Virus record (IMG/VR): IMGVR_UViG_2565956720_000013
Strand: one strand, 5' to 3'
From: a virus
Lineage: Duplodnaviria > Heunggongvirae > Uroviricota > Caudoviricetes
DNA length: 21,942 nucleotides
Shown: one piece after another, positions 1 to 18,618 of the stretch
How the letters are laid out: every line of letters starts with the position of its first letter
How positions within the stretch are numbered: position 1 is the first letter of the stretch
The notes under the pieces: generated by a model
What the model was told of the DNA's origin: nothing
The model's database searches: none
The model's input: the letters and a program-made list of their open reading frames with translations, nothing else
Position numbers and translations under genes: made by a program

Positions 1-996
1 TTATGGACGCATTATGGACATTCCTGACACCGGGTTAAGAGTCACAGCATCTTGTAAGAAATCCGGTGCAAAGTGTGCGTAGGTCATAGTTTGCTGAATG
101 TTAGAATGACCCAGGATGCGCTGCAATGTGATTATGTTACCTCCATTCATTATAAAATGTGTGGCAAATGTATGCCTCAAAACATGTACTGCTTGTCCGT
201 CAGGTAAATCGGGTTTTACTTCCCTGAGAGCGTTACGCACTTTGTAGTAACTGGCATTAAAAAGCCTGCCTGAATTTTTGGTCTTGATCCGTTTAATCAG
301 GTCCTGCGAAACGGGAATTGTCCTGCGTTTTCCGTTTTTAGTTTTCATAAACGTAACCATCTGGTTAATGATGTGTTCAGCTTTTAAATTAGACACTTCA
401 CTCCAGCGTCCACCAGTAGAAAGGCAGACCAGAGTTGCATTTAATTCATCACCATCAAGCATGGATAACAGCCGCGTAATCTCTTCACTGGACAAAAAAG
501 CCATTTCCGTAACAGCTTCACGTAACCGTTTAATCTCACGGAACGGGTTGTGGGAGTGGTATTCACCGGCGTCAATTAACTTGGTGAACATCCCGCTCAT
601 TATTGCCAGATGTCGATTTACGCTGGCTGGTTTTAGACCATCGTTCATCATTACAACGCGATAATCAGTTATCGTTTTCTTTGTTAGCTGGTCAGCTCTG
701 GACACTCCCATTTCTGCAAATTTGGCGATTATTGTCGTTAAACGCCCCCGTTCAATATCTCCACGCTCATGTGATTTTCCGTGATATATCCACCATCTAC
801 CTAACAACTCTGTAAGAGTTCGGCGGTCGGCTGGTTTCTCCAACCACTCTTTGTTGTGGTAGTTAACCAATACATGACGTTCGAATGCCTGAGCTTCACC
901 TTTAGTTTTAAATTTCCGCCTGATACGTTTTCCATCTGCACCCTGCGGTCTGACGTCCACTTCATAACGACCATCATCGAGCTTTTTAATAGACAT
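1..996 (-). CDS. int: Tyrosine-type site-specific integrase, P2 Int-like; complete ORF with stop at 1-3, so attL should lie just beyond the left window edge
   Basis: 331 aa ORF; C-terminal catalytic region with LRHTFATH and GHSNIQQTMTYAHF (R/H box and catalytic Tyr of tyrosine recombinases); located downstream of and co-oriented with the repressor, as in the P2 C-int arrangement. Confidence 0.9.
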   Translation of the reverse strand: MSIKKLDDGRYEVDVRPQGADGKRIRRKFKTKGEAQAFERHVLVNYHNKEWLEKPADRRTLTELLGRWWIYHGKSHERGDIERGRLTTIIAKFAEMGVSRADQLTKKTITDYRVVMMNDGLKPASVNRHLAIMSGMFTKLIDAGEYHSHNPFREIKRLREAVTEMAFLSSEEITRLLSMLDGDELNATLVCLSTGGRWSEVSNLKAEHIINQMVTFMKTKNGKRRTIPVSQDLIKRIKTKNSGRLFNASYYKVRNALREVKPDLPDGQAVHVLRHTFATHFIMNGGNIITLQRILGHSNIQQTMTYAHFAPDFLQDAVTLNPVSGMSIMRP

Positions 997-1089
997 AAAG
1001 CCCTCCGATGACGCTGTTTACTTCTACTACTTGAAAATTAATGCAATTTTCTTTCGTACATTTACTACACACATATGCTGAATAAATCG

Positions 1090-1389
1090 TCAGCCAGTCT
1101 TCTGGTCTGAGTGGTGCAAGGTTGTTGAGTCTTGCCCAATGTGTGCGAGAGCCGGGGCTATTTGTCCAGCTGCTGGATCTGTTTCATCAAACATGAACCA
1201 GTCACGATACTTGCGAAAGCGTGGATGCTTAAACAGCTTCATACCTGCTTCCATAGGCATTTTTGATTTTCCTGATTCATATCCATGATATGTGTAGTAA
1301 TTAATTCCAATTAATTCAGCAAGTTCCTTAGTTTTAAGGCGTTCGGATTCACGGATGAGCTTTAGTTTCTCACTTTGTTCACTTGACAT
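1090..1389 (-). CDS. C: Immunity repressor, P2 C-like
   Basis: 99 aa from the ATG at 1389 (the ORF-track start at 1407 is a TTG); GGAG Shine-Dalgarno upstream; helix-turn-helix-like segment ELAELIGINYYTYHGYESGKS; C-terminal QIAPALAHIGQ resembles P2 C as recalled from memory; divergent from the cox-like gene. Confidence 0.75.
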   Translation of the reverse strand: MSSEQSEKLKLIRESERLKTKELAELIGINYYTYHGYESGKSKMPMEAGMKLFKHPRFRKYRDWFMFDETDPAAGQIAPALAHIGQDSTTLHHSDQKTG

Positions 1390-1482
1390 AATTTTGCTAA
1401 TCTCCAATTATATTGCTACTTGGCAATTTGTGATTCACTCAAAAAGGCTCTAGATGGCTCCAGTTGGTGAATCGCAAATCTT
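1390..1482. promoter_or_regulatory. Immunity switch region: divergent promoter/operator interval between the repressor and the cox-like gene
   Basis: 93-bp interval between divergent regulator genes; contains a 13-bp imperfect inverted repeat, atttgtgattcac at 1426-1438 and gtgaatcgcaaat at 1467-1479 (12 of 13 positions complementary); a TATAAT hexamer reads on the minus strand around 1407-1412. Confidence 0.5.
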
Positions 1483-1854
1483 ATGGAGGATAGCAAAGTG
1501 ACGACAAATGTAGAAATTTCTTGTCCAACTAGCGATGAGGCAAGTTTCGAAAATGAAGCCAAACGTAAAAGCATTCAGATTTCAGAGCGCCCATCTGATT
1601 TGCTGTCGAAAGAAGGTTTTGCTCTTTACATCGGTAAGACACCACGCGCGGTGGCTGAAATGGCTAAAGCAGGAAAGCTGCCAGCCTTCTACATGACAGA
1701 CCCATTAAAACCAAGAGGGAAAGCTGAATTATGGATTAATCGCCGTGAGTGGGACAAGTACGCAGCCCAACTGGTTGATGAAGCTCCGACAGAATGGCAT
1801 GACTGGAAAAATCGCATTAGTTACAGCAAATCAAGACATGGCCGTGCGGCTTAA
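1483..1854 (+). CDS. cox: Cox-like excisionase / transcriptional switch protein; true start uncertain (ATG 1483 without a clear SD, or GTG 1498 preceded by GGAGGA)
   Basis: First rightward gene, divergent from the repressor; segment GKLPAFYMTDPLKPRGKAELWI resembles the P2 Cox KLPVIDMTDP region as recalled from memory; longer N-terminus than P2 Cox. Confidence 0.6.
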   Translation: MEDSKVTTNVEISCPTSDEASFENEAKRKSIQISERPSDLLSKEGFALYIGKTPRAVAEMAKAGKLPAFYMTDPLKPRGKAELWINRREWDKYAAQLVDEAPTEWHDWKNRISYSKSRHGRAA

Positions 1855-3346: not shown

Positions 3347-3618
3347 GTATTCGTATCGAAATTGGCGAACGTTATGTCGTTACCAGTGACAGCTTTCAGT
3401 TTATTCTCCACGAGAAAAAGAGAGCGGAAAGCGGTAAAAACGCCGGTCAGGAATGGCTGGCGGTGGTTGGTTATTACCCGAAATTAAGCCAGCTCGTTTC
3501 CGGCCTGATGCATCACGATATTCTGACCGGAAGCGCAAAGTCTTTTGCTGATTTAAACGCGCAGGTTGAGCAACTCAGCAAGCGTTGTTCAGAGGCTTTT
3601 GGCTCATATGGCCGTTAA
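3343..3618 (+). CDS. Hypothetical early-operon protein (91 aa)
   Basis: ATGA overlap with the upstream stop; its 3' end overlaps the start of gpA. Confidence 0.45.
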   Translation: MSIRIEIGERYVVTSDSFQFILHEKKRAESGKNAGQEWLAVVGYYPKLSQLVSGLMHHDILTGSAKSFADLNAQVEQLSKRCSEAFGSYGR

Positions 3619-5920
3619 AGCCTCCGGGCGTTTTGTCCCTCCGTCAGCATTTGCCGCAGACACCGGTAAGACGTTTGCCGGTGCTTATGCATGGAACGCG
3701 CCACGCGAGGCTGTCGGGCGCGAAAGACCCCTTACACGTGATGAGATGCGTCAGGTGCAAGGTGTTTTATCCACGATTAACCGCCTGCCTTACTTTTTGC
3801 GCTCGCTGTTTACTTCACGCTATGACTACATCCGGCGCAATAAAAGCCCGGTACACGGGTTTTATTTCCTCACATCCACTTTTCAGCGTCGTTTATGGCC
3901 GCGCATTGAGCGCGTGAATCAGCGCCATGAAATGAACACCGACGCGTCGTTGCTGTTTCTGGCAGAGCGTGACCAGTATGCGCGCCTGCCGGGGATGAAT
4001 GACAAGGAGCTGAAAAAGTTTGCCGCCCGTATCTCATCACAGCTTTTCATGATGTATGAGGAACTCTGCGATGCCTGGGTGGATGCGCATGGCGAGAAAG
4101 AATCGCTGTTTACGGATGATGCGCAGGCTCACCTCTATGGTCATGTTGCTGGCGCTGCACGTGCTTTCAATATTTCCCCGCTTTACTGGAAAAAATACCG
4201 TAAAGGACAGATGACCACGAGGCAGGCATATTCTGCAATTGCCCGTCTGTTTAACGATGAGTGGTGGACTCATCAGCTTAAAGGCCAGCGTATGCGCTGG
4301 CATGAAGCGTTACTGATAGCTGTCGGGGAGGTCAATAAAGACCGTTCTCCTTATGCCAGTAAACACGCCATTCGTGATGTGCGTGCGCGCCGCCAGGCAA
4401 ATCTGGAATTTCTTAAATCGTGTGACCTTGAAAACAGGGAAACCGGCGAGCGCATCGACCTTATCAGTAAGGTGATGGGCAGTATTTCTAATCCTGAAAT
4501 TCGCCGGATGGAGCTGATGAACACCATTGCCGGTATTGAGCGTTACGCCGCTGCAGAGGGTGATGTGGGGATGTTTATCACGCTGACCGCGCCGTCAAAG
4601 TATCACCCGACACGTCAGGTCAGAAAAGGCGAAAGTAAAACCGTTCAGCTTAATCACGGCTGGAACGATGAGGCATTTAATCCAAAGGATGCGCAGCGTT
4701 ATCTCTGCCGCATCTGGAGCCTGATGCGCACGGCATTCAAGGATAATGATTTACAGGTCTACGGTTTGCGTGTCGTCGAGCCACACCACGACGGAACGCC
4801 GCACTGGCATATGATGCTTTTTTGTAATCCACGCCAGCGTAACCAGATTATTGAAATCATGCGTCGCTACGCGCTCAAAGAGGATGGCGACGAAAGAGGA
4901 GCTGCGCGAAACCGTTTTCAGGCAAAACACCTTAACCGGGGCGGTGCTGCGGGGTATATCGCAAAATACATCTCAAAAAACATCGATGGCTATGCACTGG
5001 ATGGTCAGCTCGATAATGATACCGGCAGGCCGCTGAAAGATACTGCTGCGGCTGTTACCGCATGGGCGTCAACGTGGCGAATTCCGCAATTTAAAACGAT
5101 TGGCCTGCCGACAATGGGGGCTTACCGTGAACTACGCAAATTGCCTCGCGGCGTCAGTATTGCTGATGAGTTTGACGAACGCGTCGAGGCTGCTCGCGCT
5201 GCCGCAGACAGTGGTGATTTTGCGTTGTATATCAGCGCGCAGGGTGGGGCAAATGTCCCGCGCGATTGTCAGACTGTCAGGGTTGCCCGTAGCCCGTCGG
5301 ATGACGTTAACGAGTACGAGGAAGAAGTCGAGAGAGTGGTCGGCATTTACGCGCCGCATCTCGGCGCGCGTCATATTCATATCACCAGAACGACGGACTG
5401 GCGCATTGTGCCGAAAGTTCCGGTCGTTGAGCCTTTGACTTTAAAAAGCGGCATCGCCGCGCCTCGGAGTCCTGTCAATAACTGTGGAAAGCTCACCGGT
5501 GGTGATACTTCGTTACCGGCTCCCACACCTTCTGAGCACGCCGCAGCAGTGCTAAATCTGGTTGATGACGGTGTTATCGAATGGAATGACCCGGAGGTCG
5601 TGAGGACGCTCAGGGGTGCATTAAAACACGGCCTGAAAACACCAAATCGTCAGCAAAGAAACGGAAGCCCGTTAAAACCACATGAAATTGCGCCATCGGC
5701 CAGACTGACTCGGTCGGAACGAATGCAAATTACCCGTATCCGCGTTGACCTTGCTCAGAACGGTATCAGGCCACAGCGATGGGAGCTTGAGGCGCTGGCT
5801 CGGGGAGCGAGAGTAAATTATGGTGATATGTCATTCAAATTTCCAGTTGATGATCGATTTTATGATGATGTTAACTCTTTGAATTTATGGAGTATTGAGT
5901 CTCATGTGAACTTCACATAA
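3608..5920 (+). CDS. A: Replication initiation endonuclease gpA (rolling-circle HUH nickase)
   Basis: 770 aa from ATG 3608 (ORF-track start 3566 is a TTG); HUH-type motif PHWHMMLF; tandem active-site tyrosines in GYIAKYISKN as in phiX174-type Rep proteins; syntenic position of P2 A. Confidence 0.9.
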   Translation: MAVKASGRFVPPSAFAADTGKTFAGAYAWNAPREAVGRERPLTRDEMRQVQGVLSTINRLPYFLRSLFTSRYDYIRRNKSPVHGFYFLTSTFQRRLWPRIERVNQRHEMNTDASLLFLAERDQYARLPGMNDKELKKFAARISSQLFMMYEELCDAWVDAHGEKESLFTDDAQAHLYGHVAGAARAFNISPLYWKKYRKGQMTTRQAYSAIARLFNDEWWTHQLKGQRMRWHEALLIAVGEVNKDRSPYASKHAIRDVRARRQANLEFLKSCDLENRETGERIDLISKVMGSISNPEIRRMELMNTIAGIERYAAAEGDVGMFITLTAPSKYHPTRQVRKGESKTVQLNHGWNDEAFNPKDAQRYLCRIWSLMRTAFKDNDLQVYGLRVVEPHHDGTPHWHMMLFCNPRQRNQIIEIMRRYALKEDGDERGAARNRFQAKHLNRGGAAGYIAKYISKNIDGYALDGQLDNDTGRPLKDTAAAVTAWASTWRIPQFKTIGLPTMGAYRELRKLPRGVSIADEFDERVEAARAAADSGDFALYISAQGGANVPRDCQTVRVARSPSDDVNEYEEEVERVVGIYAPHLGARHIHITRTTDWRIVPKVPVVEPLTLKSGIAAPRSPVNNCGKLTGGDTSLPAPTPSEHAAAVLNLVDDGVIEWNDPEVVRTLRGALKHGLKTPNRQQRNGSPLKPHEIAPSARLTRSERMQITRIRVDLAQNGIRPQRWELEALARGARVNYGDMSFKFPVDDRFYDDVNSLNLWSIESHVNFT

Positions 5921-5974
5921 TATGGGGCCGTTGTAGGTGTTTGAACAATCACACTTCAATTCAAAGGGATAGTT

Positions 5975-7222
5975 ATGGTTATTTATCAAGGTGGTAAGAT
6001 AATATCTGAAGATGATTTTTATTCTCATCTTTATTCGTTATGTCAGTTGGATAATGTAGGCGTTCTTTTAGGAGCGGGAGCATCGGTCGGCTGTGGTGGC
6101 CAAACTATGAAGCAGGTATGGCAGTCTTTTAAATATGCACATCCTGAGCTATTGAATTTGTTGCTAGAAAAATACTTACTGGTTGACAATACTGAATCTG
6201 AACAAGACATAGTTAATGTTGAACTTCTGATTGATGAAGTAACTAAATTCTTGTCTGTAGCGAAAACAAGGCGTAATGAAAAAGAACAAAATGAAATTAG
6301 TTTAATATTAAGTGCTTTATATAAACAAGTAACAAGGGCTGCATTGTTAACTGGAGAAGAGTTTGGTTGTAAAAATCAAGGGAAGAAAAACCAGTTTAGG
6401 TCTCATAAAGAATTAATTTCAAAGTTGATTTCAAATAGGCAGCCGGGACAATCGGCACCGGCACTTTTTACCACCAATTATGATTTGGCATTAGAGTGGG
6501 CAGCCGAAGATTTAGGAATTCAGTTATTTAATGGTTTTTCAGGATTGCATACAAGACAATTTTATCCTCAAAATTTTGATTTGGCATTTAGAAATGTCAA
6601 TGCAAAAGGGGAGGCTAGATTTGGTCATTATCACGCTTATCTATATAAGTTGCATGGCTCTCTTACATGGTATCAGGATGATTTTTTAATAGTTAATGAG
6701 GTAAGTGCATCTCAGGCATATGATAATTACATTAAAAATATAATTAATGGTGATGATTTTTACTATGGTCAACATTTGATTTATCCGGGGGCTAATAAAT
6801 ATAGCCATACAATTGGTTTTGTTTACGGTGAAATGTTTAGGCGTTTTGGTGAATTTTTGTCAAAACCTCAAACCGCTTTATTTATTAATGGGTTTGGGTT
6901 TGGTGATTATCATATAAACAGAATTGTTTTTGGTGCTTTGTTAAATCCGTCATTTCATGTTGTTATTTATTACCCTGATCTGGAGAATGCTTTAGATAAA
7001 GTTAGAAGAGGTGTTGCTTCTGAAGGTGAAAAGGCAATTGATGCTTTAAAAAATATGCAATTCAATCAAGTGACTATCGTGGGTGGAGGTCCAGATGCTT
7101 ACTTTGATAGTTTTGTGAAACATCTTCCTTATCCGGTGTTGTTCCCAAGAGAAAATACTGTTGATGATTTGGTTGAAGCTATTTCTAAATTGTCTAAAGG
7201 GGAAGGGAATGTCGCATTTTAA
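5975..7222 (+). CDS. SIR2-like (SIR2_2 / DHS-like NAD-binding fold) protein, predicted NADase effector of a SIR2-HerA-type defence module
   Basis: 415 aa; N-terminal GAGASVGCG glycine-rich motif; TTNYD (sirtuin-type catalytic Asn) about 130 aa downstream; KLHGSL (catalytic His) further on; AT-rich coding sequence unlike the flanking phage genes. Confidence 0.75.
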   Translation: MVIYQGGKIISEDDFYSHLYSLCQLDNVGVLLGAGASVGCGGQTMKQVWQSFKYAHPELLNLLLEKYLLVDNTESEQDIVNVELLIDEVTKFLSVAKTRRNEKEQNEISLILSALYKQVTRAALLTGEEFGCKNQGKKNQFRSHKELISKLISNRQPGQSAPALFTTNYDLALEWAAEDLGIQLFNGFSGLHTRQFYPQNFDLAFRNVNAKGEARFGHYHAYLYKLHGSLTWYQDDFLIVNEVSASQAYDNYIKNIINGDDFYYGQHLIYPGANKYSHTIGFVYGEMFRRFGEFLSKPQTALFINGFGFGDYHINRIVFGALLNPSFHVVIYYPDLENALDKVRRGVASEGEKAIDALKNMQFNQVTIVGGGPDAYFDSFVKHLPYPVLFPRENTVDDLVEAISKLSKGEGNVAF

Positions 7223-9029
7223 ACTATCTGAATTATCTGCTATTGGGTATGTTGTTGGTCTGGAGGGCGAAAAAATAAGGATAAATCTTCATGAAGGATT
7301 GCAAGGTAGGCTAGCCTCTCATAGGGATGGTGTCAGTTCTGTTACTCAGCCTGGAGATTTGATCGGTTTTGATGCCGGAAATATTCTGGTTGTGGCTCGA
7401 GTTACAGATATGGCATTTGTCGAGGCTGATAAAGCACATCAGGCAAAAATAGGTACATCAGATATAGCAGATATCCCGTTAAGGCAAATAATAGCCTATG
7501 CAATAGGTTTTATTAGACGAGATATAGATGGATGTGTGTTTGTTTCGGAAGACTGGAGATTACCTGCTCTGGGAGCATCCGCTGTCCCATTAACATCTGA
7601 CTTTTTAAATGTCGTATATAGTATTGATAAAAATGATCTGGATAAAGCAATTGAGTTGGGAATAGATTCGAGGACTAAATCAGTTAAAATTTTAGCTAGC
7701 ATTGATAAATTACTAACTAGGCATATGGCTGTTTTGGGCAGTACTGGATATGGTAAATCTAATTTTAATGCTTTACTTACACGCCGCATTTCAGAACAGT
7801 ACCCTAATGCAAGAATAGTAATTTTTGATATTAATGGCGAGTATTCTCAGGCTTTTGAAGGTGTTGCTAATGTTAAACATACTATTTTAGGTGAGTTACC
7901 AAAAGGAGAGATTCCAAAACCACCTCTACAGAAAGGAGATATATTTTCTGAGAATAAACATTACTATTATAGAAAAATACCTTATCAAGCATTGGGATTT
8001 GCTGGGTTGATAAAATTACTACGCCCTAGTGATAAGACACAATTACCTGCATTAAGAAATGCGCTTAATGCTATAAATAGTGTTCATTTTTCCGATGATT
8101 CTTTCTTTCTTAAGGATAATGGGGGAAGGGTATTTGATATTTTTGATGATTGTAGAGATGAAGGGCAAGAAGTTTTATCTGCATGGTTGAGTTTCTTAAG
8201 AAGTGGGCATCTGTGTAAGGCAAATAAATGGCCGCCGTTTAAAAGTATTGCTAACTTAGTTGCGGAGTTTGGCTGCGTGGCGGCGGATTCGCGAAAAACT
8301 GGATCTAGTAAACGAGATGCTTTTAGCTATGGCAATGTTCTGCCATTGATTAAGATAATTCAACAGTTATCAGAGGATTCTAGATTCAAGTATATTGTTG
8401 ATTTAAATGGAGGTGGTGAATTATTAAGTGATGGCAAGCATTGGGAATTAGCTATGAGACAGGAGGTTGATTATTTTTTTGGTAAAGAAAAGGGAGAGGA
8501 GAATGACTGGAATATTCATATTGTTAATTTTAAGCATCTTTCACAAGATCATGCTCCAATGCTGTTAAGTGCATTATTAGAAATGTTTGCTGAAGTTCTC
8601 TTCCTTAGAGGTCAAGATAAAGCTTTTCCAACAGTGTTACTTCTTGAAGAAGCGCATCATTATTTAAGAGATCCTTATTCTGAAGTTGATGCTCAAATTA
8701 AAGCTTATGAAAGACTTGCAAAGGAAGGCCGTAAATTTAAATGTTCACTTATTGTGAGCACACAACGACCATCAGAGCTTTCATCAACAGTATTAGCAAT
8801 GTGTGCAAATTGGTTTTCGTTGCGTCTGACAAATGAGCGTGATTTGCAGACTTTACGGTATGCGATGGAAAGTGGAAATGAGTTAATGATTCGGCAGATT
8901 TCTGGGCTTCCCAGAGGAGATGCAATAGCGTTTGGTGCTGCTTTTAATATACCCGTAAGAATTTCAATTCACCCTGCTGTACCCGGTCCGAGATCGTCTG
9001 ACGCAAGTTATTCTCAAGAATGGCGATAA
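7209..9029 (+). CDS. HerA-like (FtsK/HerA superfamily) P-loop ATPase, partner of the SIR2-like protein
   Basis: 606 aa from ATG 7209 (AAGGGGAAGGGA SD; ORF-track start 7161 is upstream in frame); Walker A GSTGYGKSN; Walker B VLLLEEAHHY; downstream LIVSTQRPSELS motif typical of HerA/FtsK-type ATPases; overlaps the upstream gene by 14 nt. Confidence 0.8.
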   Translation: MSHFKLSELSAIGYVVGLEGEKIRINLHEGLQGRLASHRDGVSSVTQPGDLIGFDAGNILVVARVTDMAFVEADKAHQAKIGTSDIADIPLRQIIAYAIGFIRRDIDGCVFVSEDWRLPALGASAVPLTSDFLNVVYSIDKNDLDKAIELGIDSRTKSVKILASIDKLLTRHMAVLGSTGYGKSNFNALLTRRISEQYPNARIVIFDINGEYSQAFEGVANVKHTILGELPKGEIPKPPLQKGDIFSENKHYYYRKIPYQALGFAGLIKLLRPSDKTQLPALRNALNAINSVHFSDDSFFLKDNGGRVFDIFDDCRDEGQEVLSAWLSFLRSGHLCKANKWPPFKSIANLVAEFGCVAADSRKTGSSKRDAFSYGNVLPLIKIIQQLSEDSRFKYIVDLNGGGELLSDGKHWELAMRQEVDYFFGKEKGEENDWNIHIVNFKHLSQDHAPMLLSALLEMFAEVLFLRGQDKAFPTVLLLEEAHHYLRDPYSEVDAQIKAYERLAKEGRKFKCSLIVSTQRPSELSSTVLAMCANWFSLRLTNERDLQTLRYAMESGNELMIRQISGLPRGDAIAFGAAFNIPVRISIHPAVPGPRSSDASYSQEWR

Positions 9030-9183
9030 TCTTGTGGGAGAATGTAATAGGATAACGATAAATGCATCTATCTGCATTAATTCGAATTAGGTTGAGAGGA
9101 GTTCAAAAACAAATTTAGACCGGCATTAGAGTGGTTTAGATAGACATATGCAACTGCATTAAAACCGCCCCGTGAAGCGGGCG

Positions 9184-9202
9184 GGCGAGGCGGGGAAAGC
9201 AC
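9184..9202. other. cos cohesive-end site (P2/P4-type 19-nt sequence GGCGAGGCGGGGAAAGCAC)
   Basis: Exact match to the P2 cos cohesive-end sequence as I recall it; lies between the accessory locus and portal gene Q, as in P2; preceded by the hairpin ccgccc-N8-gggcgg. Confidence 0.7.
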
Positions 9203-9344
9203 TGCGCGCTGGCGGTGGTGCTGATTTTATTTTTTCAGCGTCTGAGCGCGTCGTGATGGCGTTTAGATTGTGTACCGGGGCGTTGGTGTGTCTGCGGGGT
9301 GTTTTGTGCGGTGGTGAGCGTGTGAGGGCGTGATGACGGGGTGT

Positions 9345-9366
9345 AAAAAAGCCGCCCGCAGGCGGC
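9345..9366 (-). terminator. Rho-independent terminator for the leftward P-Q transcript
   Basis: Minus-strand GC stem GCCGCC-tgcg-GGCGGC followed by a run of six T, immediately downstream of the portal stop codon (9372-9374). Confidence 0.55.
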
Positions 9367-9371
9367 GATGT

Positions 9372-10406
9372 TCAGCCGTTGTCAGTGTCCAGTGAGTAGT
9401 TTTTAAAGCGGATGACCTCCTGACCGAGCCAGCCGTTTATCTCGCGGATCCTGTCCTGTAACGGGATAAGCTCATTGCGGACAAAGACCTTTGCCACTTT
9501 CTCAATATCACCCAGCGACCCGACGTTCTCCGGCTTGCCGCCCATCAACTGAAAGGGGATGCGGTGCGCGTCCAGCAGGTCAGCGGCGCTGGCTTTTTTG
9601 ATATTAAAAAAATCGTCCTTCGTTGCCACTTCACTGAGCGGGATAATTTTAATGCCGTCGGCTTTTCCCTGCGGGGCATAGAGAAACAGATTTTTAAAGT
9701 TGTTGCGGCCTTTCGACTTGACCATGTTTTCGCGAAGCATTTCGATATCGTTGCGATCCTGCACGGCATCAGTGACGTACATGATGTATCCGGCATGTGC
9801 GCCGTTTTCGTAATACTTGCGGCGGAACAGCGTGGCTGACTCATTCAGCCAGGCAGAGTTAAGGGCGCTGAGATATTCCGGCATGCCGTACAGCTCCTGA
9901 TTAATATCCGGCTCCAGCAGATGAAACACGGAGCCGGGCGCGAAAGGTGTCGGCTCGTTGAAGGACGGCACCCACCAGTAAACATCCTCCTCCACGCCAC
10001 GGCGGGTATATTTTGCCGGTGAGGTTTCCAGTCTGATGACCTTACCGGTGGTGCTGTAACGCTTTTCCAGAAACGCATTACCGAACACCAGAAAATCCAG
10101 CACAAAGCGGCTGAAATCCTGTTGTGAAAGCCACGGATGCGGGATAAATGTCGAGGCCAGAATATTACGTTTGACGTAAATCGGTGAGCTGTGATGCACG
10201 GCAGCACGCAGGCTTTTTGCCAGACCGGTAAAGCTGACCGGTGGCTCATACCATCTGCCGTTACTGATGCACTCGACGTAATCCAGAATGTCACGGCGGT
10301 CGAGTACCGGCACCGGCTCACCAAAGGTGAATGCCTCCATTTTCGGGGCGCTGGCGGTCATTTTTTTTGCCTCAGGTTGCGGTGTTTTCCCTTTTTTCTT
10401 GCTCAT
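9372..10406 (-). CDS. Q: Portal protein gpQ
   Basis: 344 aa, the length I recall for P2 Q; start overlaps the terminase stop (ATGA overlap); leftward, next to cos. Confidence 0.9.
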   Translation of the reverse strand: MSKKKGKTPQPEAKKMTASAPKMEAFTFGEPVPVLDRRDILDYVECISNGRWYEPPVSFTGLAKSLRAAVHHSSPIYVKRNILASTFIPHPWLSQQDFSRFVLDFLVFGNAFLEKRYSTTGKVIRLETSPAKYTRRGVEEDVYWWVPSFNEPTPFAPGSVFHLLEPDINQELYGMPEYLSALNSAWLNESATLFRRKYYENGAHAGYIMYVTDAVQDRNDIEMLRENMVKSKGRNNFKNLFLYAPQGKADGIKIIPLSEVATKDDFFNIKKASAADLLDAHRIPFQLMGGKPENVGSLGDIEKVAKVFVRNELIPLQDRIREINGWLGQEVIRFKNYSLDTDNG

Positions 10407-12178
10407 CAGTAAAACTCCAGAATGGTGGATGTCAGCGGAGTGCTGATACCGGCGGTGAGTGGCTCATTTAACAGGGCGTGCATGGTCGCCCAGGCGAGGT
10501 CGGCGTGGCTGGCTTCCTCGCTGCGGCTGGCCTCATAGGTGGCACTGCGTCCGCTGCTGGTCATGGTCTTGCGGATAGCCATAAACGAGCTGGTGATGTC
10601 GGTGGCGCTGACGTCGTATTCCAGACAGCCACGGCGGATGACGTCTTTTGCCTTGAGCACCATTGCGGTTTTCATTTCCGGCGTGTAGCGGATGTCGCGC
10701 GCGGCGGGATAGAACGAGCGCACGAGCTGGAACACGCCGACACCGAGGCCGGTGGCATCAATACCGATGTATTCGACGTTGTATTTTTCGGTGAGTTTGC
10801 GGATGGATTCCGCCTGGGTGGCAAAGTCCATGCCTTTCCACTGGTGACGCTCAAGTATTCTGAATTTGCCACCGGCCACCACCGGCGGTGCCAGCACCAC
10901 GCATCCGGCACTGTCGCCACGGTGTGACGGGTCGTAACCAATCCAGACCGGGCGGGAGCCGAACGGATTCGCGGCAAACGGCGCATAGTCTTCCCATTCT
11001 TCCAGCGTGTCGACCATGCAGCGTTGCAGCTCCTCGAACGGGAATACCGACGCCTTGTCGTCAACAAATTCACACATGAACAGGTTTTTAAAATCGTCGG
11101 CGCTGTTTTCGCGTTTAAGCTGCTCAATGTCGAACAGCGTGCAGCCACCTTTCAGGGCGTCCTCAATGGTGACAATCTGCCGCCACTGGCCGTCCGCACA
11201 GAGAAGCCCACCGGCAAGGGCGTTATGACTGACGTCGATTTCCACGCGTTCGGCGGCGCTGGCGCGTCCCCGGTTGAACAGTTCACCCGACCAGAACGGA
11301 TAGGCGTCGTGCGCCAGCGTGGACGGGGTGGAGAAATAGGTCGAGCGCAGGTGACTCTGTGAGGCCATACCTGATGCCACCTTACGCAGTACCTGAAAAT
11401 TCGGGATCCAGAAAATCTCATCGACGTACAGGTCGCCGTTATGGCTCTGCGCGGTGTTGGAGTTGGTGCCGAGAAAAATCAGTTTTGCGCCGTTATTGCC
11501 CAGGACAATCGGGTCACCGGTCAGGTCAACGTCAACCAGCCGGGCAAAGGCGATGATGTATTCGCGGAACACATACGCCTGCGTTTTACTGGCCGACAGA
11601 AAAATCTGGTTATGACCGGTTTTCAGGGCGCGCAGCAGCGCCTCGCGGGAAAAATAAAACGTCGCGCCAATCTGGCGGGATTTCAGGATATCGCGGATGC
11701 GGTGCTCAAGCCCGGCGCGATACCAGTGCAACTGATAGTCGAAAGACTGCTCAAAGAAAATCTGCTCCAGCTTTTCGATGGCCTCGTCACTGAAAAAATT
11801 CTTTTTCGGTTTGCGACGCCCGCCTTTGTTGCGGTTAGCGACGTTCGGATTAAGGTCTGCCTCGTTGCCGGTCTGACTGTAGCGGTTGACCCGCGCCAGC
11901 CGTTCAATCTGGCGTCCCAGCAGGTCAATTTCCTTGAAGTCACCGCCGGTTTTCTGCGGTTTGATGATGAGCTGGGTCAGCCGCGCTTCCAGACTCATTT
12001 CGACACGGCTGATGGGGGCAACGCTGTCCCAGCCGTCGCGCTGTTTCCAGCTCTGCACCGTCGGGCGTTTCATCTGCAACATGGCGGCAATCTGCGGCAC
12101 GGAAAACCCCTGCCAGTACAGCAGCGCCGCCTGACGACGCGGGTCGTGTAAAAGAGTGGTGTCTGTGGTGATGGTCAT
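10406..12178 (-). CDS. P: Terminase large subunit (ATPase) gpP
   Basis: 590 aa from ATG 12178 (MTITTDTTLLHD; ORF-track start 12208 is a TTG), the length I recall for P2 P; GAGGT SD; upstream of and coupled to the portal gene. Confidence 0.9.
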   Translation of the reverse strand: MTITTDTTLLHDPRRQAALLYWQGFSVPQIAAMLQMKRPTVQSWKQRDGWDSVAPISRVEMSLEARLTQLIIKPQKTGGDFKEIDLLGRQIERLARVNRYSQTGNEADLNPNVANRNKGGRRKPKKNFFSDEAIEKLEQIFFEQSFDYQLHWYRAGLEHRIRDILKSRQIGATFYFSREALLRALKTGHNQIFLSASKTQAYVFREYIIAFARLVDVDLTGDPIVLGNNGAKLIFLGTNSNTAQSHNGDLYVDEIFWIPNFQVLRKVASGMASQSHLRSTYFSTPSTLAHDAYPFWSGELFNRGRASAAERVEIDVSHNALAGGLLCADGQWRQIVTIEDALKGGCTLFDIEQLKRENSADDFKNLFMCEFVDDKASVFPFEELQRCMVDTLEEWEDYAPFAANPFGSRPVWIGYDPSHRGDSAGCVVLAPPVVAGGKFRILERHQWKGMDFATQAESIRKLTEKYNVEYIGIDATGLGVGVFQLVRSFYPAARDIRYTPEMKTAMVLKAKDVIRRGCLEYDVSATDITSSFMAIRKTMTSSGRSATYEASRSEEASHADLAWATMHALLNEPLTAGISTPLTSTILEFY

Positions 12179-12351
12179 GAATACCTCGCCGTGATGAATA
12201 CACGGCAAGGCTACTGAGTCGCGCCCCGCGATTCGCTAAGGTGCTGTTGTGTCAGTGATAAGCCATCCGGGACTGATGGCGGAGGATGCGCATCGTCGGG
12301 AAACTGATGCCGACATGTGACTCCTCTAATCACTATTCAGGACTCCTGACA
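12179..12351. promoter_or_regulatory. Divergent late-promoter interval between terminase P (leftward) and scaffold O (rightward)
   Basis: 173-bp non-coding interval between divergent late operons; by analogy with the P2 P_P/P_O promoters; no perfect TGT-N12-ACA activator dyad was found by eye. Confidence 0.4.
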
Positions 12352-13206
12352 ATGGCAAAAAAAGTCTCAAAATTCTTTCGTATCGGCGTTGAGGGTGACA
12401 CCTGTGACGGGCGTGTCATCAGTGCGCAGGATATTCAGGAAATGGCCGAAACCTTTGACCCGCGTGTCTATGGTTGCCGCATTAACCTGGAACATCTGCG
12501 CGGCATCCTGCCTGACGGTATTTTTAAGCGTTATGGCGATGTGGTCGAACTGAAGGCCGAAAAGATTGACGATGATTCGGCGCTGAAAGGCAAATGGGCG
12601 CTGTTTGCGAAAATCACCCCGACCGATGACCTTATCGCGATGAACAAGGCCGCGCAGAAGGTCTATACCTCAATGGAAATTCAGCCGAACTTTGCCAATA
12701 CCGGCAAATGTTATCTGGTGGGTCTGGCCGTCACCGATGACCCGGCAAGCCTCGGCACGGAATACCTGGAATTCTGCCGCACGGCAAAACACAACCCTCT
12801 GAACCGCTTCAAATTAAGCCCTGAAAACCTGATTTCAGTGGCAACGCCTGTTGAGCTGGAATTTGAAGACCTGCCTGAAACCGTGTTCACAGCCCTGACC
12901 GAAAAGGTGAAATCCATTTTTGGCCGCAAACAGGCCAGCGATGACGCCCGTCTGAATGACGTGCATGAAGCGGTGACCGCTGTTGCTGAACATGTGCAGG
13001 AAAAACTGAGCGCCACTGAGCAGCGCCTCGCAGAGATGGAAACCGCCTTTTCCGCACTTAAGCAGGAGGTGACTGACAGGGCGGATGAAACCAGTCAGGC
13101 ATTCACCCGCCTGAAAAACAGTCTCGACCACACCGAAAGTCTGACCCAGCAGCGCCGCAGCAAGGCCACCGGCGGTGGCGGTGACGCCCTGATGACGAAC
13201 TGCTGA
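12352..13206 (+). CDS. O: Capsid scaffolding protein gpO
   Basis: 284 aa from ATG 12352 (MAKKVSKFF), the length I recall for P2 O; first gene of the rightward late operon. Confidence 0.9.
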   Translation: MAKKVSKFFRIGVEGDTCDGRVISAQDIQEMAETFDPRVYGCRINLEHLRGILPDGIFKRYGDVVELKAEKIDDDSALKGKWALFAKITPTDDLIAMNKAAQKVYTSMEIQPNFANTGKCYLVGLAVTDDPASLGTEYLEFCRTAKHNPLNRFKLSPENLISVATPVELEFEDLPETVFTALTEKVKSIFGRKQASDDARLNDVHEAVTAVAEHVQEKLSATEQRLAEMETAFSALKQEVTDRADETSQAFTRLKNSLDHTESLTQQRRSKATGGGGDALMTNC

Positions 13207-13264
13207 CCGGCGTCAGTCAGTCCGGGAAAACCTTCACGATTAACCCTTAATTTCAGGAAAAACT

Positions 13265-14338
13265 ATGCGCCAGGAAACCCGCTTTAAATTTAATGCCTAC
13301 CTGTCCCGTGTTGCCGAACTGAACGGCATCGACGCCGGTGATGTGTCGAAAAAATTCACCGTTGAACCGTCGGTCACCCAGACCCTGATGAACACCATGC
13401 AGGAGTCCTCTGATTTCCTGACCCGCATCAACATTGTGCCGGTCAGCGAAATGAAAGGGGAAAAAATTGGCATCGGTGTCACCGGCTCCATCGCCAGCAC
13501 CACCGACACCGCCGGTGGCACCGAGCGTCAGCCGAAGGACTTCTCGAAGCTGGCGTCAAACAAGTACGAATGCGACCAGATTAACTTCGATTTTTATATC
13601 CGCTACAAAACGCTTGACCTGTGGGCGCGTTATCAGGATTTCCAGCTCCGTATCCGTAACGCCATTATCAAACGCCAGTCCCTTGATTTCATCATGGCCG
13701 GTTTTAACGGCGTGAAGCGTGCCGAAACCTCTGACCGCAGCAGCAATCCGATGCTGCAGGATGTGGCAGTCGGCTGGCTGCAGAAATACCGCAATGAAGC
13801 TCCGGCGCGCGTGATGAGCAAGGTCACTGACGAGGAAGGTCACACGACCTCTGAGGTCATCCGCGTGGGTAAGGGCGGTGATTATGCCAGCCTCGATGCA
13901 CTGGTGATGGATGCGACCAACAACCTGATTGAACCGTGGTATCAGGAAGACCCTGACCTTGTGGTGATTGTGGGGCGTCAGCTACTGGCGGACAAGTATT
14001 TCCCCATCGTCAACAAAGAGCAGGACAACAGCGAAATGCTGGCCGCTGACGTCATCATCAGCCAGAAACGCATCGGCAACCTGCCAGCGGTACGCGTCCC
14101 GTACTTCCCGGCGGATGCGATGCTCATCACGAAGCTGGAAAACCTGTCCATCTACTACATGGATGACAGCCATCGCCGCGTGATTGTGGAAAACCCGAAA
14201 CTCGACCGCGTGGAGAACTACGAGTCAATGAACATTGATTACGTGGTGGAAGACTACGCCGCCGGTTGTCTGGTGGAAAAAATTAAGGTCGGTGATTTCT
14301 CCACACCGGCTAAAGCGACCGCAGAGCCGGGAGCGTAA
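13265..14338 (+). CDS. N: Major capsid protein gpN
   Basis: 357 aa, the length I recall for P2 N; syntenic position after the scaffold gene. Confidence 0.9.
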   Translation: MRQETRFKFNAYLSRVAELNGIDAGDVSKKFTVEPSVTQTLMNTMQESSDFLTRINIVPVSEMKGEKIGIGVTGSIASTTDTAGGTERQPKDFSKLASNKYECDQINFDFYIRYKTLDLWARYQDFQLRIRNAIIKRQSLDFIMAGFNGVKRAETSDRSSNPMLQDVAVGWLQKYRNEAPARVMSKVTDEEGHTTSEVIRVGKGGDYASLDALVMDATNNLIEPWYQEDPDLVVIVGRQLLADKYFPIVNKEQDNSEMLAADVIISQKRIGNLPAVRVPYFPADAMLITKLENLSIYYMDDSHRRVIVENPKLDRVENYESMNIDYVVEDYAAGCLVEKIKVGDFSTPAKATAEPGA

Positions 14339-14341
14339 CCG

Positions 14342-15085
14342 ATGATGAGTCCCGCACAGCGCCACATGATGCGGGTCTCGGCAGCGATGACCGCGCAGCG
14401 GGACGCCGCCCCGCTGCGACATGCAACTGTCTATGAGCAGATGCTGGTCAAGCTGGCCGCAGACCAGCGCACACTGAAAGCGATTTATTCAAAAGAGCTG
14501 AAGGCCGCGAAAAAACGCGAACTGCTGCCGTTCTGGTTGCCGTGGGTGAACGGTGTGCTGGAGCAGGGCAAAGGTGCACAGGATGACATTCTGATGACGG
14601 TCATGCTGTGGCGTCTGGATACCGGCGATATTGCCGGTGCGCTGGAGATTGCCCGTTATGCCCTGAAGTACGGTCTGACCATGCCGGGTAAACACCGCCG
14701 CACCCCGCCGTACATGTTCACCGAGGAGGTGGCGCTCGCGGCCATGCGCGCCCACGCTGCCGGTGAGTCTGTGGATACCCGCCTGCTGACGGAGACCCTT
14801 GCACTGACCGCCACGGCAGACATGCCTGATGAAGTGCGCGCAAAGCTGCACAAAATCACCGGTCTGTTTCTGCGTGACGCTGGTGATGCCGCCGGTGCGC
14901 TGGCTCACCTGCAACGTGCGACACAGCTCGACTGTCAGGCAGGCGTCAAAAAAGAGATTGAACGACTGGAGCGGGAGCTGAAACCGAAGCCAGAGCCGCA
15001 GCCCAAAGCGGCCACCAGTGCCACGCGTAAGACCCGGAGTGCGACACCGGCAAAACGTGGACGCCCGAAAAAGAAAGCCAGTTAA
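14342..15085 (+). CDS. M: Terminase small subunit / endonuclease gpM
   Basis: 247 aa, the length I recall for P2 M; basic Lys/Arg-rich C-terminal tail (TRKTRSATPAKRGRPKKKAS); syntenic. Confidence 0.85.
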   Translation: MMSPAQRHMMRVSAAMTAQRDAAPLRHATVYEQMLVKLAADQRTLKAIYSKELKAAKKRELLPFWLPWVNGVLEQGKGAQDDILMTVMLWRLDTGDIAGALEIARYALKYGLTMPGKHRRTPPYMFTEEVALAAMRAHAAGESVDTRLLTETLALTATADMPDEVRAKLHKITGLFLRDAGDAAGALAHLQRATQLDCQAGVKKEIERLERELKPKPEPQPKAATSATRKTRSATPAKRGRPKKKAS

Positions 15086-15184
15086 CAACCGAATGCGCCC
15101 CGCGCCAGGGCGGCACGCCGGTCTGTGAGGGTGAATCACCTGACACTGTACCGGCGTCCACCGCCCGACTTTTCAGAGGTAGTC

Positions 15185-15694
15185 ATGATGACGCTGATTA
15201 TTCCGCGAAAGGAGGCTCCCGTGTCTGGTGAGGGTACGGTGGTCATCCCGCAACCGGCAGGCGACGAGCCGGTGATTAAAAACACGTTCTTTTTTCCCGA
15301 TATCGACCCGAAGCGCGTCCGGGAACGTATGCGCCTTGAGCAGACCGTCGCCCCCGCCCGTCTGCGTGAGGCCATCAAGTCAGGCATGGCTGAAACGAAT
15401 GCGGAGCTGTACGAGTACCGCGAACAGAAAATTGCTGCCGGTTTTACGCGTCTGGCGGACGTCCCGGCGGACGACATCGACGGTGAAAGCATCAAAGTTT
15501 TTTACTACGAGCGCGCCGTGTGTGCGATGGCGACCGCGTCGCTTTATGAGCGTTATCGCGGTGTGGATGCCAGTGCGAAAGGCGACAAGAAGGCTGACAG
15601 CATTGACAGCACCATCGATGAACTGTGGCGGGATATGCGCTGGGCAGTGGCGCGCATCCAGGACAAGCCGCGCTGCATCGTGAGTCAAATCTGA
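15185..15694 (+). CDS. L: Head completion / stabilisation protein gpL
   Basis: 169 aa from ATG 15185 (GAGGT SD; ORF-track start 15125 is upstream in frame), the length I recall for P2 L. Confidence 0.8.
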   Translation: MMTLIIPRKEAPVSGEGTVVIPQPAGDEPVIKNTFFFPDIDPKRVRERMRLEQTVAPARLREAIKSGMAETNAELYEYREQKIAAGFTRLADVPADDIDGESIKVFYYERAVCAMATASLYERYRGVDASAKGDKKADSIDSTIDELWRDMRWAVARIQDKPRCIVSQI

Positions 15695-15897
15695 TGAAGA
15701 CCTTTGCGCTACAGGGCGACACGCTCGACGCCATTTGTGTCCGGTATTACGGGCGCACTGAGGGCGTGGTCGAGGCCGTGCTCGCCGCAAATCCGGGACT
15801 GGCTGAACTGGGTGCGGTGCTGCCACACGGCACCGCCGTCGAACTGCCCGACGTTCAGACCGCGCCCGTGGCTGAAACTGTCAATCTGTGGGAGTAA
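15694..15897 (+). CDS. X: Tail protein gpX
   Basis: 67 aa from ATG 15694 overlapping the L stop (TGATG), the length I recall for P2 X. Confidence 0.75.
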   Translation: MKTFALQGDTLDAICVRYYGRTEGVVEAVLAANPGLAELGAVLPHGTAVELPDVQTAPVAETVNLWE

Positions 15898-15900
15898 CGC

Positions 15901-16182
15901 ATGACAGCAGAAGAAAAAAGCGTCCTGTCGCTTTTCATGATTGGGGTGCTGATTGTTGTCGGCAAGGTGCTTGCCGGTGGTGAACCCATCACCCCGCGTC
16001 TGTTTATCGGGCGCATGTTGCTCGGTGGTTTTGTCTCAATGGTTGCCGGTGTTGTTCTGGTGCAGTTTCCTGACCTGTCACTGCCTGCGGTGTGCGGCAT
16101 TGGCTCCATGCTGGGTATCGCCGGTTATCAGGTGATTGAGATTGCCATTCAGCGCCGCTTTAAGGGCAGGGGGAAACAGTAA
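15901..16182 (+). CDS. Y: Holin gpY
   Basis: 93 aa; hydrophobic membrane segments (LSLFMIGVLIVVGKVLAGG, FVSMVAGVVLVQF); immediately upstream of the endolysin. Confidence 0.8.
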   Translation: MTAEEKSVLSLFMIGVLIVVGKVLAGGEPITPRLFIGRMLLGGFVSMVAGVVLVQFPDLSLPAVCGIGSMLGIAGYQVIEIAIQRRFKGRGKQ

Positions 16183-16679
16183 TGCCGGTAATTAAAACAC
16201 ATCAGAATATCGCCGCCTTTCTCGACATGCTGGCCGTGTCCGAAGGGACGGCGAATCATCCGCTGACGAAAAACCGGGGCTATGACGTGATAGTCACCGG
16301 ACTGGACGGGAAGCCGGAAATTTTCACCGACTACAGTGACCACCCGTTCGCGCATGGCCGACCGGCGAAGGTATTTAACCGTCGCGGTGAAAAGTCCACG
16401 GCCTCCGGTCGCTATCAGCAGCTTTACCTGTTCTGGCCGCACTACCGCAAACAGCTTGCCCTGCCGGATTTCAGTCCGTTGTCACAGGACAGGCTCGCCA
16501 TTCAGTTGATCCGCGAACGCGGTGCACTGGATGACATCCGGGCGGGACGCATTGAGCGCGCCATTTCACGCTGTCGCAATATCTGGGCGTCCCTGCCGGG
16601 AGCCGGTTACGGTCAGCGTGAGCATTCACTGGAAAAACTGGTCACCGTCTGGCGTAGCGCTGGCGGCGTACCGGCTTAA
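16182..16679 (+). CDS. K: Endolysin gpK (lambda R-like lytic transglycosylase)
   Basis: 165 aa; FLDMLAVSEGT catalytic-Glu region and GYDVIV, FTDYSDHP, NIWASLPGAGYGQ motifs closely resemble lambda R endolysin. Confidence 0.9.
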   Translation: MPVIKTHQNIAAFLDMLAVSEGTANHPLTKNRGYDVIVTGLDGKPEIFTDYSDHPFAHGRPAKVFNRRGEKSTASGRYQQLYLFWPHYRKQLALPDFSPLSQDRLAIQLIRERGALDDIRAGRIERAISRCRNIWASLPGAGYGQREHSLEKLVTVWRSAGGVPA

Positions 16680-16693
16680 ACGGAGTAAACACC

Positions 16694-17119
16694 ATGAAGA
16701 AATTATCCCTTTCACTGATGCTGAACGTGTCGCTGGCGCTGATGCTGGCACTGTCCCTGATTTACCCGCAGAGCGTGGCCGTCAGTTTTGTCGCCACCTG
16801 GGCGATTCTGGCGACGGTTATCTGTGTGGTTGCCGGTGGTGTCGGCGTGTATGCCACGGAGTATGTGCTGGAACGCTACGGGCGGGAGCTTCCGCCGGAA
16901 TCGCTGGCCGTGAAGATTGTCACGTCGCTGTTTTTGCAGCCGGTGCCGTGGCGCAGACGGGCGGTGGCTCTGGTGGTGATGGTGGCGACGTTTATCTCGC
17001 TGGTCGCTGCCGGGTGGATTTTTACCGCGCTGATTTATCTCGTGGCGTCGGTGTTCTTCCGGCTGATACGTACGGCCTGCCGTCAGCGTTTTGAGGGGCG
17101 GGAACCATGTCAAAGCTGA
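16694..17119 (+). CDS. lysA: LysA lysis-timing membrane protein
   Basis: 141 aa; several hydrophobic transmembrane segments; syntenic with P2 lysA. Confidence 0.75.
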   Translation: MKKLSLSLMLNVSLALMLALSLIYPQSVAVSFVATWAILATVICVVAGGVGVYATEYVLERYGRELPPESLAVKIVTSLFLQPVPWRRRAVALVVMVATFISLVAAGWIFTALIYLVASVFFRLIRTACRQRFEGREPCQS

Positions 17120-17532
17120 TGATTGTGATGGTTGTGCTGTTATCGCTGGCGGTGGCGGGGCTGTTTCTGGTGAAGCATGAAAACGCCAGCCTGCGCGCCT
17201 CGCTGGACAGGGCGAACAACGTCGCCAGCGGGCAGCAGACGACCATCACCATGCTGCAAAATCAGCTTCATGTTGCCATCACCAGGGCAGACAAAAACGA
17301 GCTGGCGCAGGTGGCACTGCGTCAGGAACTGGAGAACGCCGCGAAGCGTGAAGCACAGCGCGAGAAAACCATCACGAGGTTACTTAATGAAAGCGAAGAT
17401 TTTCGCCGCTGGTACGGTGCTGACCTGCCTGATGCTGTGCGCCGGTTGCACCAGCGCCCCGCCTGCACTGACGCCAGTGATTGTCGCCAACGCCTGCCCG
17501 AAAGTGAGCCTTTGCCCGATGCCGGGCAGTGA
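17107..17532 (+). CDS. lysB: LysB, Rz-like inner-membrane spanin
   Basis: 141 aa; N-terminal transmembrane segment (MIVMVVLLSLAVAGLFLV) followed by a charged coiled-coil-like region; contains the embedded lysC frame. Confidence 0.8.
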   Translation: MSKLMIVMVVLLSLAVAGLFLVKHENASLRASLDRANNVASGQQTTITMLQNQLHVAITRADKNELAQVALRQELENAAKREAQREKTITRLLNESEDFRRWYGADLPDAVRRLHQRPACTDASDCRQRLPESEPLPDAGQ

Positions 17533-17677
17533 CCCGCAGACGAACGGCGATTTAAGTGCCGATATCCGGCAGCTTGAGAACGCGCTGGCACGCTGTGCCA
17601 GCCAGGTAAAAATGATTAAACACTGTCAGGACGAAAACGATGCTCAAACCCGACAGCCTGCGCAGGGCGCTGACTGA
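17387..17677 (+). CDS. lysC: LysC, Rz1-like outer-membrane lipoprotein spanin, embedded in the +1 frame of lysB
   Basis: 96 aa from ATG 17387; lipoprotein signal with lipobox LCAGC; Pro-rich mature region; starts inside lysB and extends past its stop. Confidence 0.75.
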   Translation: MKAKIFAAGTVLTCLMLCAGCTSAPPALTPVIVANACPKVSLCPMPGSDPQTNGDLSADIRQLENALARCASQVKMIKHCQDENDAQTRQPAQGAD

Positions 17678-18107
17678 TGCCGTCACGGTGCTGAAAACCA
17701 GTCCCGAGATGCTGCGGATATTCGTTGATAACGGGAGTATTGCCTCCACGCTGGCGACGTCGTTGTCATTCGAAAAGCGTTACACGCTCAATGTGATTGT
17801 GACCGACTTTACCGGTGATTTTGACCTGCTCATCGTGCCGGTGCTGGCGTGGCTGCGGGAAAATCAGCCCGACATCATGACCACTGACGAAGGTCAGAAA
17901 AAGGGCTTCACGTTTTATGCAGACATCAACAATGACAGCAGCTTTGATATCAGCATCAGCCTGATGCTGACCGAGCGCACGCTGGTCAGTGAGGTGGACG
18001 GCGCGCTGCATGTGAAGAATATCCCGGAACCCACGCCGCCGGAGCCGGTCACCCGCCCGATGGAGCTTTATATCAATGGCGAACTGGTGAGCAAGTGGGA
18101 TGAATGA
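17640..18107 (+). CDS. R: Tail completion protein gpR
   Basis: 155 aa, the length I recall for P2 R; syntenic. Confidence 0.8.
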   Translation: MLKPDSLRRALTDAVTVLKTSPEMLRIFVDNGSIASTLATSLSFEKRYTLNVIVTDFTGDFDLLIVPVLAWLRENQPDIMTTDEGQKKGFTFYADINNDSSFDISISLMLTERTLVSEVDGALHVKNIPEPTPPEPVTRPMELYINGELVSKWDE

Positions 18108-18552
18108 GTTTAAGCGTTTTGAAGACCGGCTGACCGGACTGATTGAGTCGCTGTCACCGTCAGGGCGTCGACGACTGAGTGCCGAACTGGCGAAACGTCT
18201 GCGGCAGAGTCAGCAGCGTCGGGTGATGGCACAGAAAGCCCCGGACGGCACACCCTACGTGCCACGCCAGCAGCAGAGCGCCAGAAAAAAGACTGGTCGT
18301 GTTAAGCGAAAAATGTTTGCGAAACTTATCACCAGTCGTTTTTTGCATATCCGCGCCAGCCCGGAACAGGCATCAATGGAGTTTTACGGCGGGAAGTCAC
18401 CGAAAATCGCCAGCGTGCATCAGTTCGGTCTGTTGGAAGAAAACCGGAAAGACGGTAAGAAAATTGATTATCCGGCGCGTCCTCTGCTCGGCTTTACCAG
18501 TGAGGATGTGCAGATGATTGAAGAGATTATCCTGGCTCACCTCGACCGTTAG
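18100..18552 (+). CDS. S: Tail completion protein gpS
   Basis: 150 aa, the length I recall for P2 S; start overlaps the R stop. Confidence 0.8.
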   Translation: MNEFKRFEDRLTGLIESLSPSGRRRLSAELAKRLRQSQQRRVMAQKAPDGTPYVPRQQQSARKKTGRVKRKMFAKLITSRFLHIRASPEQASMEFYGGKSPKIASVHQFGLLEENRKDGKKIDYPARPLLGFTSEDVQMIEEIILAHLDR

Positions 18553-18618
18553 TTGTGCCATTCCTGACACCTCATCGTCACATTGCCGCCGGTATGACCC
18601 GGCGGCATCCTTCCCGTT
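18553..18618 (+). promoter_or_regulatory. S-V intergenic region: expected site of the late promoter for the V-W-J-I-H operon; contains a perfect 8-bp-stem hairpin (18585-18606)
   Basis: 66-bp gap between the two late operons; inverted repeat gccgccgg-tatgac-ccggcggc; by analogy with the P2 P_V promoter. Confidence 0.4.

Follow-up and report, generated by a model that had tools for sequence, protein, structure and literature searches.

The locus examined here raises the question whether the DNA that follows a putative defence module in a virus of the Caudoviricetes is a packaging site of the P2 type, and whether terminase cleavage at that site would place the module at the extreme end of the virion DNA. 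The analysis covered a stretch of 21,942 nucleotides (IMG/VR record IMGVR_UViG_2565956720_000013; referred to as the window), which has the gene order of a P2-type prophage.

The cohesive end, the cos core and the P2 backbone

The following elements constitute the site:

9149-9202, no strand assigned: cos core of about 55 bp that is conserved in P2, P4 and 186-type phages and delimits the variable slot on the right
9165-9184, no strand assigned: imperfect inverted repeat in the cos core, ending at the predicted top-strand nick and identical in P2
9184-9202, plus strand: 19-nt cohesive-end sequence (equivalent of cosN), exact match to the annotated cosL of NC_001895

The sequence GGCGAGGCGGGGAAAGCAC is present once in the window, on the plus strand at 9184-9202 and with 0 mismatches. 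The original prediction had taken it for the cohesive end of P2 and P4, and this was confirmed: all 19 positions are identical to bases 1-19 of the P2 record NC_001895 (annotated as 'cosL; left cohesive end'), a second copy of the 19-mer constitutes cosR of the same record (33575-33593), and the first 19 nucleotides of P4 are likewise the same. Furthermore, at least 10 deposited phage genomes start with the base homologous to window position 9184, including those of HQ103, S164, VB-YPM-4, fiAA91-ss, Wphi, L-413C, PSP3, 186, EtG and P2; the start of the fiAA91-ss record is annotated as cosL, and the records of 186, PSP3 and EtG carry the annotation 'top strand cut at 5' end, bottom strand cut at 3' end'. 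By analogy with P2 and 186, the cut in the top strand would fall 5' of G9184, that in the bottom strand opposite the junction of 9202 and 9203. Judged from the sequence, the identification of 9184-9202 as the P2 cos cohesive-end sequence is conclusive, its cleavage being predicted.

The similarity extends to the left of the 19-mer. Local blastn aligned P2 33546-33593 to window 9155-9202 with 100% identity, and the last 35 nt of P4 (11590-11624) have 94% identity to window 9149-9183; the alignment to both cos regions that had been proposed as a check of the prediction was thus positive. A core of 55 bp is known for the cos sites of P2 and P4 (Ziermann & Calendar 1990, as cited in PMC5694545), and the window contains its two parts, the 19-mer and the approximately 36 bp that precede the top-strand nick. 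The right end of P2 reads ...gcattaaaaccgccccgtgaagcgggcgg followed by ggcgaggcggggaaagcac and includes the sequence of the inverted repeat, which P2 accordingly possesses too. The extent of the core was supported by aligning 9-11 cos regions. In an alignment of nine P2-family cos regions (the window, P2, P4, PSP3, 186, EtG, vB_EcoM-613R3, Klebsiella ST147-VIM1phi7.1 and Erwinia ENT90), 41 columns were invariant, and a strongly conserved block had the form TGCAACTGCATTAAAACCG...AAGCGGGC.GGCG.GGCGGGGAAAGCA.TGCGCGC.

The site has in common with P2 cos the 19-nt cohesive end, the preceding 29 bp with the inverted repeat, and the location just outside the portal gene Q and the terminator tQ. It differs in bases 9149-9154 (TGCAAC), which correspond to the P4/186 version, whereas P2 has AAGGTG..., and in the DNA further to the left, which is SIR2-HerA in the window and the old promoter region in P2. 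Its agreement with P4 comprises the 19-mer and the adjoining 35 bp on the left, the stem of the inverted repeat being kept in the window, P2 and P4 and the changes in P4 being confined to the loop. The 186-type sites (186, PSP3, EtG) have a similar core layout; in contrast to the window, their cohesive end deviates at 2 of the 19 positions (GGCGTGGCGGGGAAAGCAT) and their inverted repeat is degenerate.

The genes and signals of the P2 backbone that surround the site are:

1-996, minus strand: integrase
1090-1407, minus strand: repressor-like ORF
3566-5920, plus strand: replication endonuclease gpA (Pfam Phage_GPA, E = 9e-123), end of the early operon
9345-9366, minus strand: tQ, rho-independent terminator of the P-Q operon (scan hit; corresponds to the annotated tQ at P2 160-181)
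9372-10406, minus strand: portal protein gpQ (Pfam Phage_portal; 98.3% identical to P2 gpQ)
10406-12178, minus strand: terminase large subunit gpP (Pfam Terminase_6N/6C/Terminase_5; 590/590 residues identical to P2, where the 590 aa are counted from the P2 start and the listed ORF extends to 12208)
14342-15085, plus strand: terminase small subunit gpM (96.8% identical to P2 gpM)

Local blastn showed collinearity of window 9184-18554 with P2 1-9369, the identity being 97.5%. The gene P is followed by O, N (gpN is 99.4% identical to that of P2), M and L and then by the lysis and tail genes; the cognate P2-type terminase (gpP, gpM) is thus encoded on the same element as cos. The order gpA, cargo, cos, tQ, Q is the one expected for the position of a P2 cos site.

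Outside this collinear block, several deviations from P2 were observed. In window 1-1850 (integrase, repressor and cox side), the identity to P2 reaches only 66-70% where an alignment is possible at all, and from 1851 on the early operon is 97% P2; the immunity/integration module is consequently of a non-P2 type, the rest of the backbone being that of P2. Classical P2 prophages are not known to be SOS-inducible. At 18555-18618, the P2 interval 9370-10307 (non-essential orf30) is absent and only 64 bp lie between the S-side and V-side homology blocks, which marks a further indel site in comparison with P2. The P2 homology ends at window 20940 (P2 12629, inside gene I and just before the tail-fibre gene H), which suggests a different tail-fibre/host-range module at 20940-21942. 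Between cos and tQ, a short patch (9259-9285) deviates from P2 as well as from E. coli CUVET16-819, the flanking DNA being approximately 99% identical.

The SIR2-HerA cargo and the borders of its slot

The segment between gpA and cos is composed of:

5822, inside the 3' end of gene A, plus strand: left border of the slot (end of P2 homology in local blastn)
5975-7222, plus strand: SIR2 protein of a SIR2-HerA defence pair (Pfam SIR2_2; PADLOC SIR2, E = 1.8e-188)
7209-9029, plus strand: HerA-type ATPase of the same pair (Pfam DUF87; PADLOC HerA, E = 3e-272)
9030-9148, plus strand: non-coding tail travelling with the cargo (diverges along with the cargo allele; absent from P2)

These profile matches identify the cargo at 5975-9029 as SIR2-HerA, a recognised defence system, for which phage resistance is predicted. 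The HerA gene likely starts with the ATG at 7209 and would then overlap the SIR2 gene by 14 nt: the PADLOC HerA match begins at residue 23 of the longer ORF, in which a Met is found at codon 17, and the annotation of L017, the locus of E. coli CUVET16-819, has the same overlap of 14 nt. In the latter strain, the gpA-gpQ slot is likewise occupied by SIR2-HerA, in the form of an allele with 78% identity. Its HerA gene (L017 5237-7051; also 78% identical) has an internal stop and is listed as a pseudogene in the annotation; this would be a case of cargo decay in place. In the window, the HerA stop codon ends at 9029 and the nick would fall at 9184; the distance of about 155 bp between the end of the defence module and cos that had been given in the prediction is therefore correct.

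Between window 5822 and 9155, the homology to P2 is interrupted (local blastn). The P2 counterpart of this slot comprises orf91/tin/old (30316-33380) and is located just inside cosR, and, as judged from the aligned sequences, SIR2-HerA replaces these genes in the window. The last ~100 bp of gene A (window 5822-5920) are not alignable with P2, which puts the left slot border inside the coding sequence of A and not after it. On the other side, phages with other cargo resume homology at window 9147-9150, and the comparison with CUVET16-819 gave an identity of ~70-78% throughout the cargo genes and the 119-bp non-coding tail that jumps to ~99% from ~9149 onward. In consequence of this step, the cos core represents the fixed right border of the exchangeable slot, as the original prediction had supposed for cos, and the non-coding tail (9030-9148) has to be assigned to the cargo.

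Variable content thus lies between conserved gpA and cos/gpQ. A query of window 5900-9260 (cargo and cos region) was matched by 2155 of 5426 complete E. coli genomes, only 16 of which carry this cargo. In all 16 of these E. coli hits, the 78% allele included, the cargo is situated in the same P2 slot, and no copy outside the P2 context (e.g. in a P4 satellite) was found among them; in the collection of phage records, the cargo was present in 0 records.

The inverted repeat and transcription around cos

A hairpin had been predicted to precede the 19-mer immediately, and the repeat itself is present as described: the arms ccgccc (9165-9170) and gggcgg (9179-9184) are complementary in 6 of 6 positions and separated by an 8-nt loop, the last base of the repeat being the first base of the 19-mer (9184). 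The stem consists of six G:C pairs, or of seven pairs with a bulge. Its standing as an independent structural element was not upheld. The same 401 bases contain twelve inverted repeats of 6 nt or longer, and the hairpin alone is thus no more than expected by chance. As DNA, it has a folding energy of -7.5 kcal/mol (z = -1.3), which was reached by 22 of 200 shuffles; the minus-strand RNA stem has -13.6 kcal/mol (z = -1.2). A thermodynamically special hairpin was accordingly rejected: when both strands were folded as DNA and as RNA, the short stem had z values between -1.2 and -1.3, and in a 66-nt context z was ~0.

Among the nine aligned cos sequences, the stem pairs 27/44 and 29/42 are unpaired in 6/9 and 5/9, respectively, and the 186-type sites have C-to-A and G-to-A changes in the stem that do not compensate each other. 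Altogether, 72% of the cells were paired, and 500 of 500 shuffles equalled the observed values; in the 6-bp model, no pair (0) was changed on both sides in the nine cos regions, i.e. no covariation was detected in the stem. Because of this lack of covariation and of the broken stem in the 186-type clade, an independently selected stem-loop was rejected (nine cos regions, two stem models). The best reading of the inverted repeat is that of a duplex recognition sequence with partial dyad symmetry within the 55-bp core.

Two other roles of the repeat have to be weighed against this reading. The stem-loop at 9165-9184 might be a working rho-independent terminator of the minus strand that acts as a second stop behind tQ and keeps late P-Q read-through out of the hotspot cargo, where it would be antisense to HerA. 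Indeed, the consensus scan classified the minus strand as terminator-like, with six GC pairs followed by TTTTAATGCA, the RNA stem has the folding energy given above, and P2 has the identical hairpin sequence, which P4 also preserves. However, this fold is unexceptional for its composition, the T-run comprises four T's only, and tQ is already present 160 bp upstream (its RNA fold has -14.4 kcal/mol, z = -2.8). Moreover, pairing is not maintained across the nine P2-family cos sites, two stem pairs being broken in five to six of them without compensatory changes, while the flanking TGCAACTGCATTAAAA is conserved, which fits the recognition of duplex DNA by a protein better than an RNA structure; we therefore regard a terminator at this position as unlikely. 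Similarly improbable appears the proposal that the hairpin is a functional feature of the P2/P4 lineage (conferring terminase specificity versus the 186-type, or insulating the cargo as a leftward terminator) and that, in addition, the sharp border at ~9149 results from recombination starting at the cleaved cohesive ends and not merely from selection on cos.

On the plus strand, the consensus scan found no terminator for the cargo in 9030-9183. Just past cos, a terminator-like element was recorded:

9206-9235, plus strand: terminator-like stem and T-run (consensus scan; sequence conserved in P2)

Its stem (9206-9221) begins 4 nt after the cohesive end and is followed by TGATTTTATTTTTT; the RNA fold of 9198-9240 has -16 kcal/mol (z = -2.1). 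As the cargo has no terminator of its own before cos, the SIR2-HerA transcript may span the site: in the prophage, cargo transcripts may read across cos and stop at 9206-9235, which is put forward as a suggestion only.

Predicted packaging of the prophage and the known gpA-gpQ hotspot

With the inverted repeat taken as part of a duplex recognition sequence, and not as an independently selected stem-loop, we consider it very probable that 9149-9202 serves a P2-type (Peduovirus) prophage as its functional cos site, where cutting by terminase would yield a genome with SIR2-HerA at its right end and with the cos core and gene A bordering the slot. By analogy with P2, the ~55-bp core would be recognised by the phage's own terminase, with gpM as the small and gpP as the large subunit (encoded 1-6 kb rightward), and staggered nicks at the two positions proposed above would generate 19-nt 5' cohesive ends. 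The packaged linear genome would start at 9184 and proceed via Q, P, O, N etc. to the tail genes, ogr, att, int and the early genes up to gpA, with SIR2-HerA coming last and the HerA stop codon positioned 155 bp from the right end. The placement of the cargo at one end of the virion DNA, as originally predicted, accords with the slot of P2, where orf91/tin/old lie just inside cosR. As the cos core must remain intact for packaging, it would form an invariant right-hand border of the slot; the left-hand border would be given by the 3' end of gene A.

A chance GC-rich match of the 19-mer without any involvement in packaging can be dismissed: none of 100 dinucleotide-preserving shuffles (0/100) contained a match even when up to 3 mismatches were allowed, and the flanks on both sides of the 19-mer are collinear with P2. 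Another objection is that the site might be a relic in a defective prophage, which would never be cut and would never have its cargo at the end of virion DNA. The 21.9-kb window indeed covers only part of the prophage, its immunity/int region is unlike that of P2, and the internal stop in the HerA gene of one relative indicates that decay occurs in such prophages. Against this stand the 100% identity of the cos core (9155-9202) to P2, the intact reading frames of the portal, both terminase subunits, capsid and scaffold proteins (97-100% identical to P2), and the 97.5% collinearity with P2 across 9.4 kb of late genes, in view of which a relic seems highly unlikely.

The reading as a functional cos site next to an exchangeable cargo agrees with published work. 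Rousset et al. 2022 (Cell Host Microbe; PMC9122126) described the gpA-gpQ hotspot of P2-like phages next to cos and speculated that the cohesive ends might supply a recombination substrate and thereby drive cargo exchange; since the cos-anchor idea is stated explicitly in that study, it is not new. Supplementary file 6 of the same paper lists 'SIR2_2 + DUF87' with WP_016242007, which is the SIR2 accession annotated in CUVET16-819, and a 2026 NAR paper (PMC13586616) provides a renewed survey of these hotspots. The locus shares with the published hotspot the anti-phage cargo between gene A and gene Q adjoining cos and shows no essential difference from it; SIR2-HerA, which occupies the position of orf91/tin/old in P2, is one allele of the catalogued cargo type SIR2_2+DUF87. 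The direction of transcription differs, in that this cargo is transcribed towards cos and old-tin of P2 away from it. A precedent for foreign DNA in the cos-abutting segment exists in a 186-like prophage, in which retrons replace the DNA abutting cos (Dodd & Egan 1996, as cited in PMC5694545). In the P4 record, by contrast, the canonical cargo (gop onward, from 247) is found on the opposite side of the 19-mer, and psu on the side where this prophage carries its cargo; P2 and P4 would therefore not trade their cargo through a single exchange inside cos.

As the cos site is a textbook element and the hotspot is published, both are already known; little is at stake, and no new question is raised by the locus. 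The analysis fixes the orientation and the predicted ends of the packaged genome of this prophage, which aids its annotation, places SIR2-HerA in the known cos-adjacent hotspot of P2-like phages, and adds one more clean example in which the border of the variable slot coincides with the cos core.
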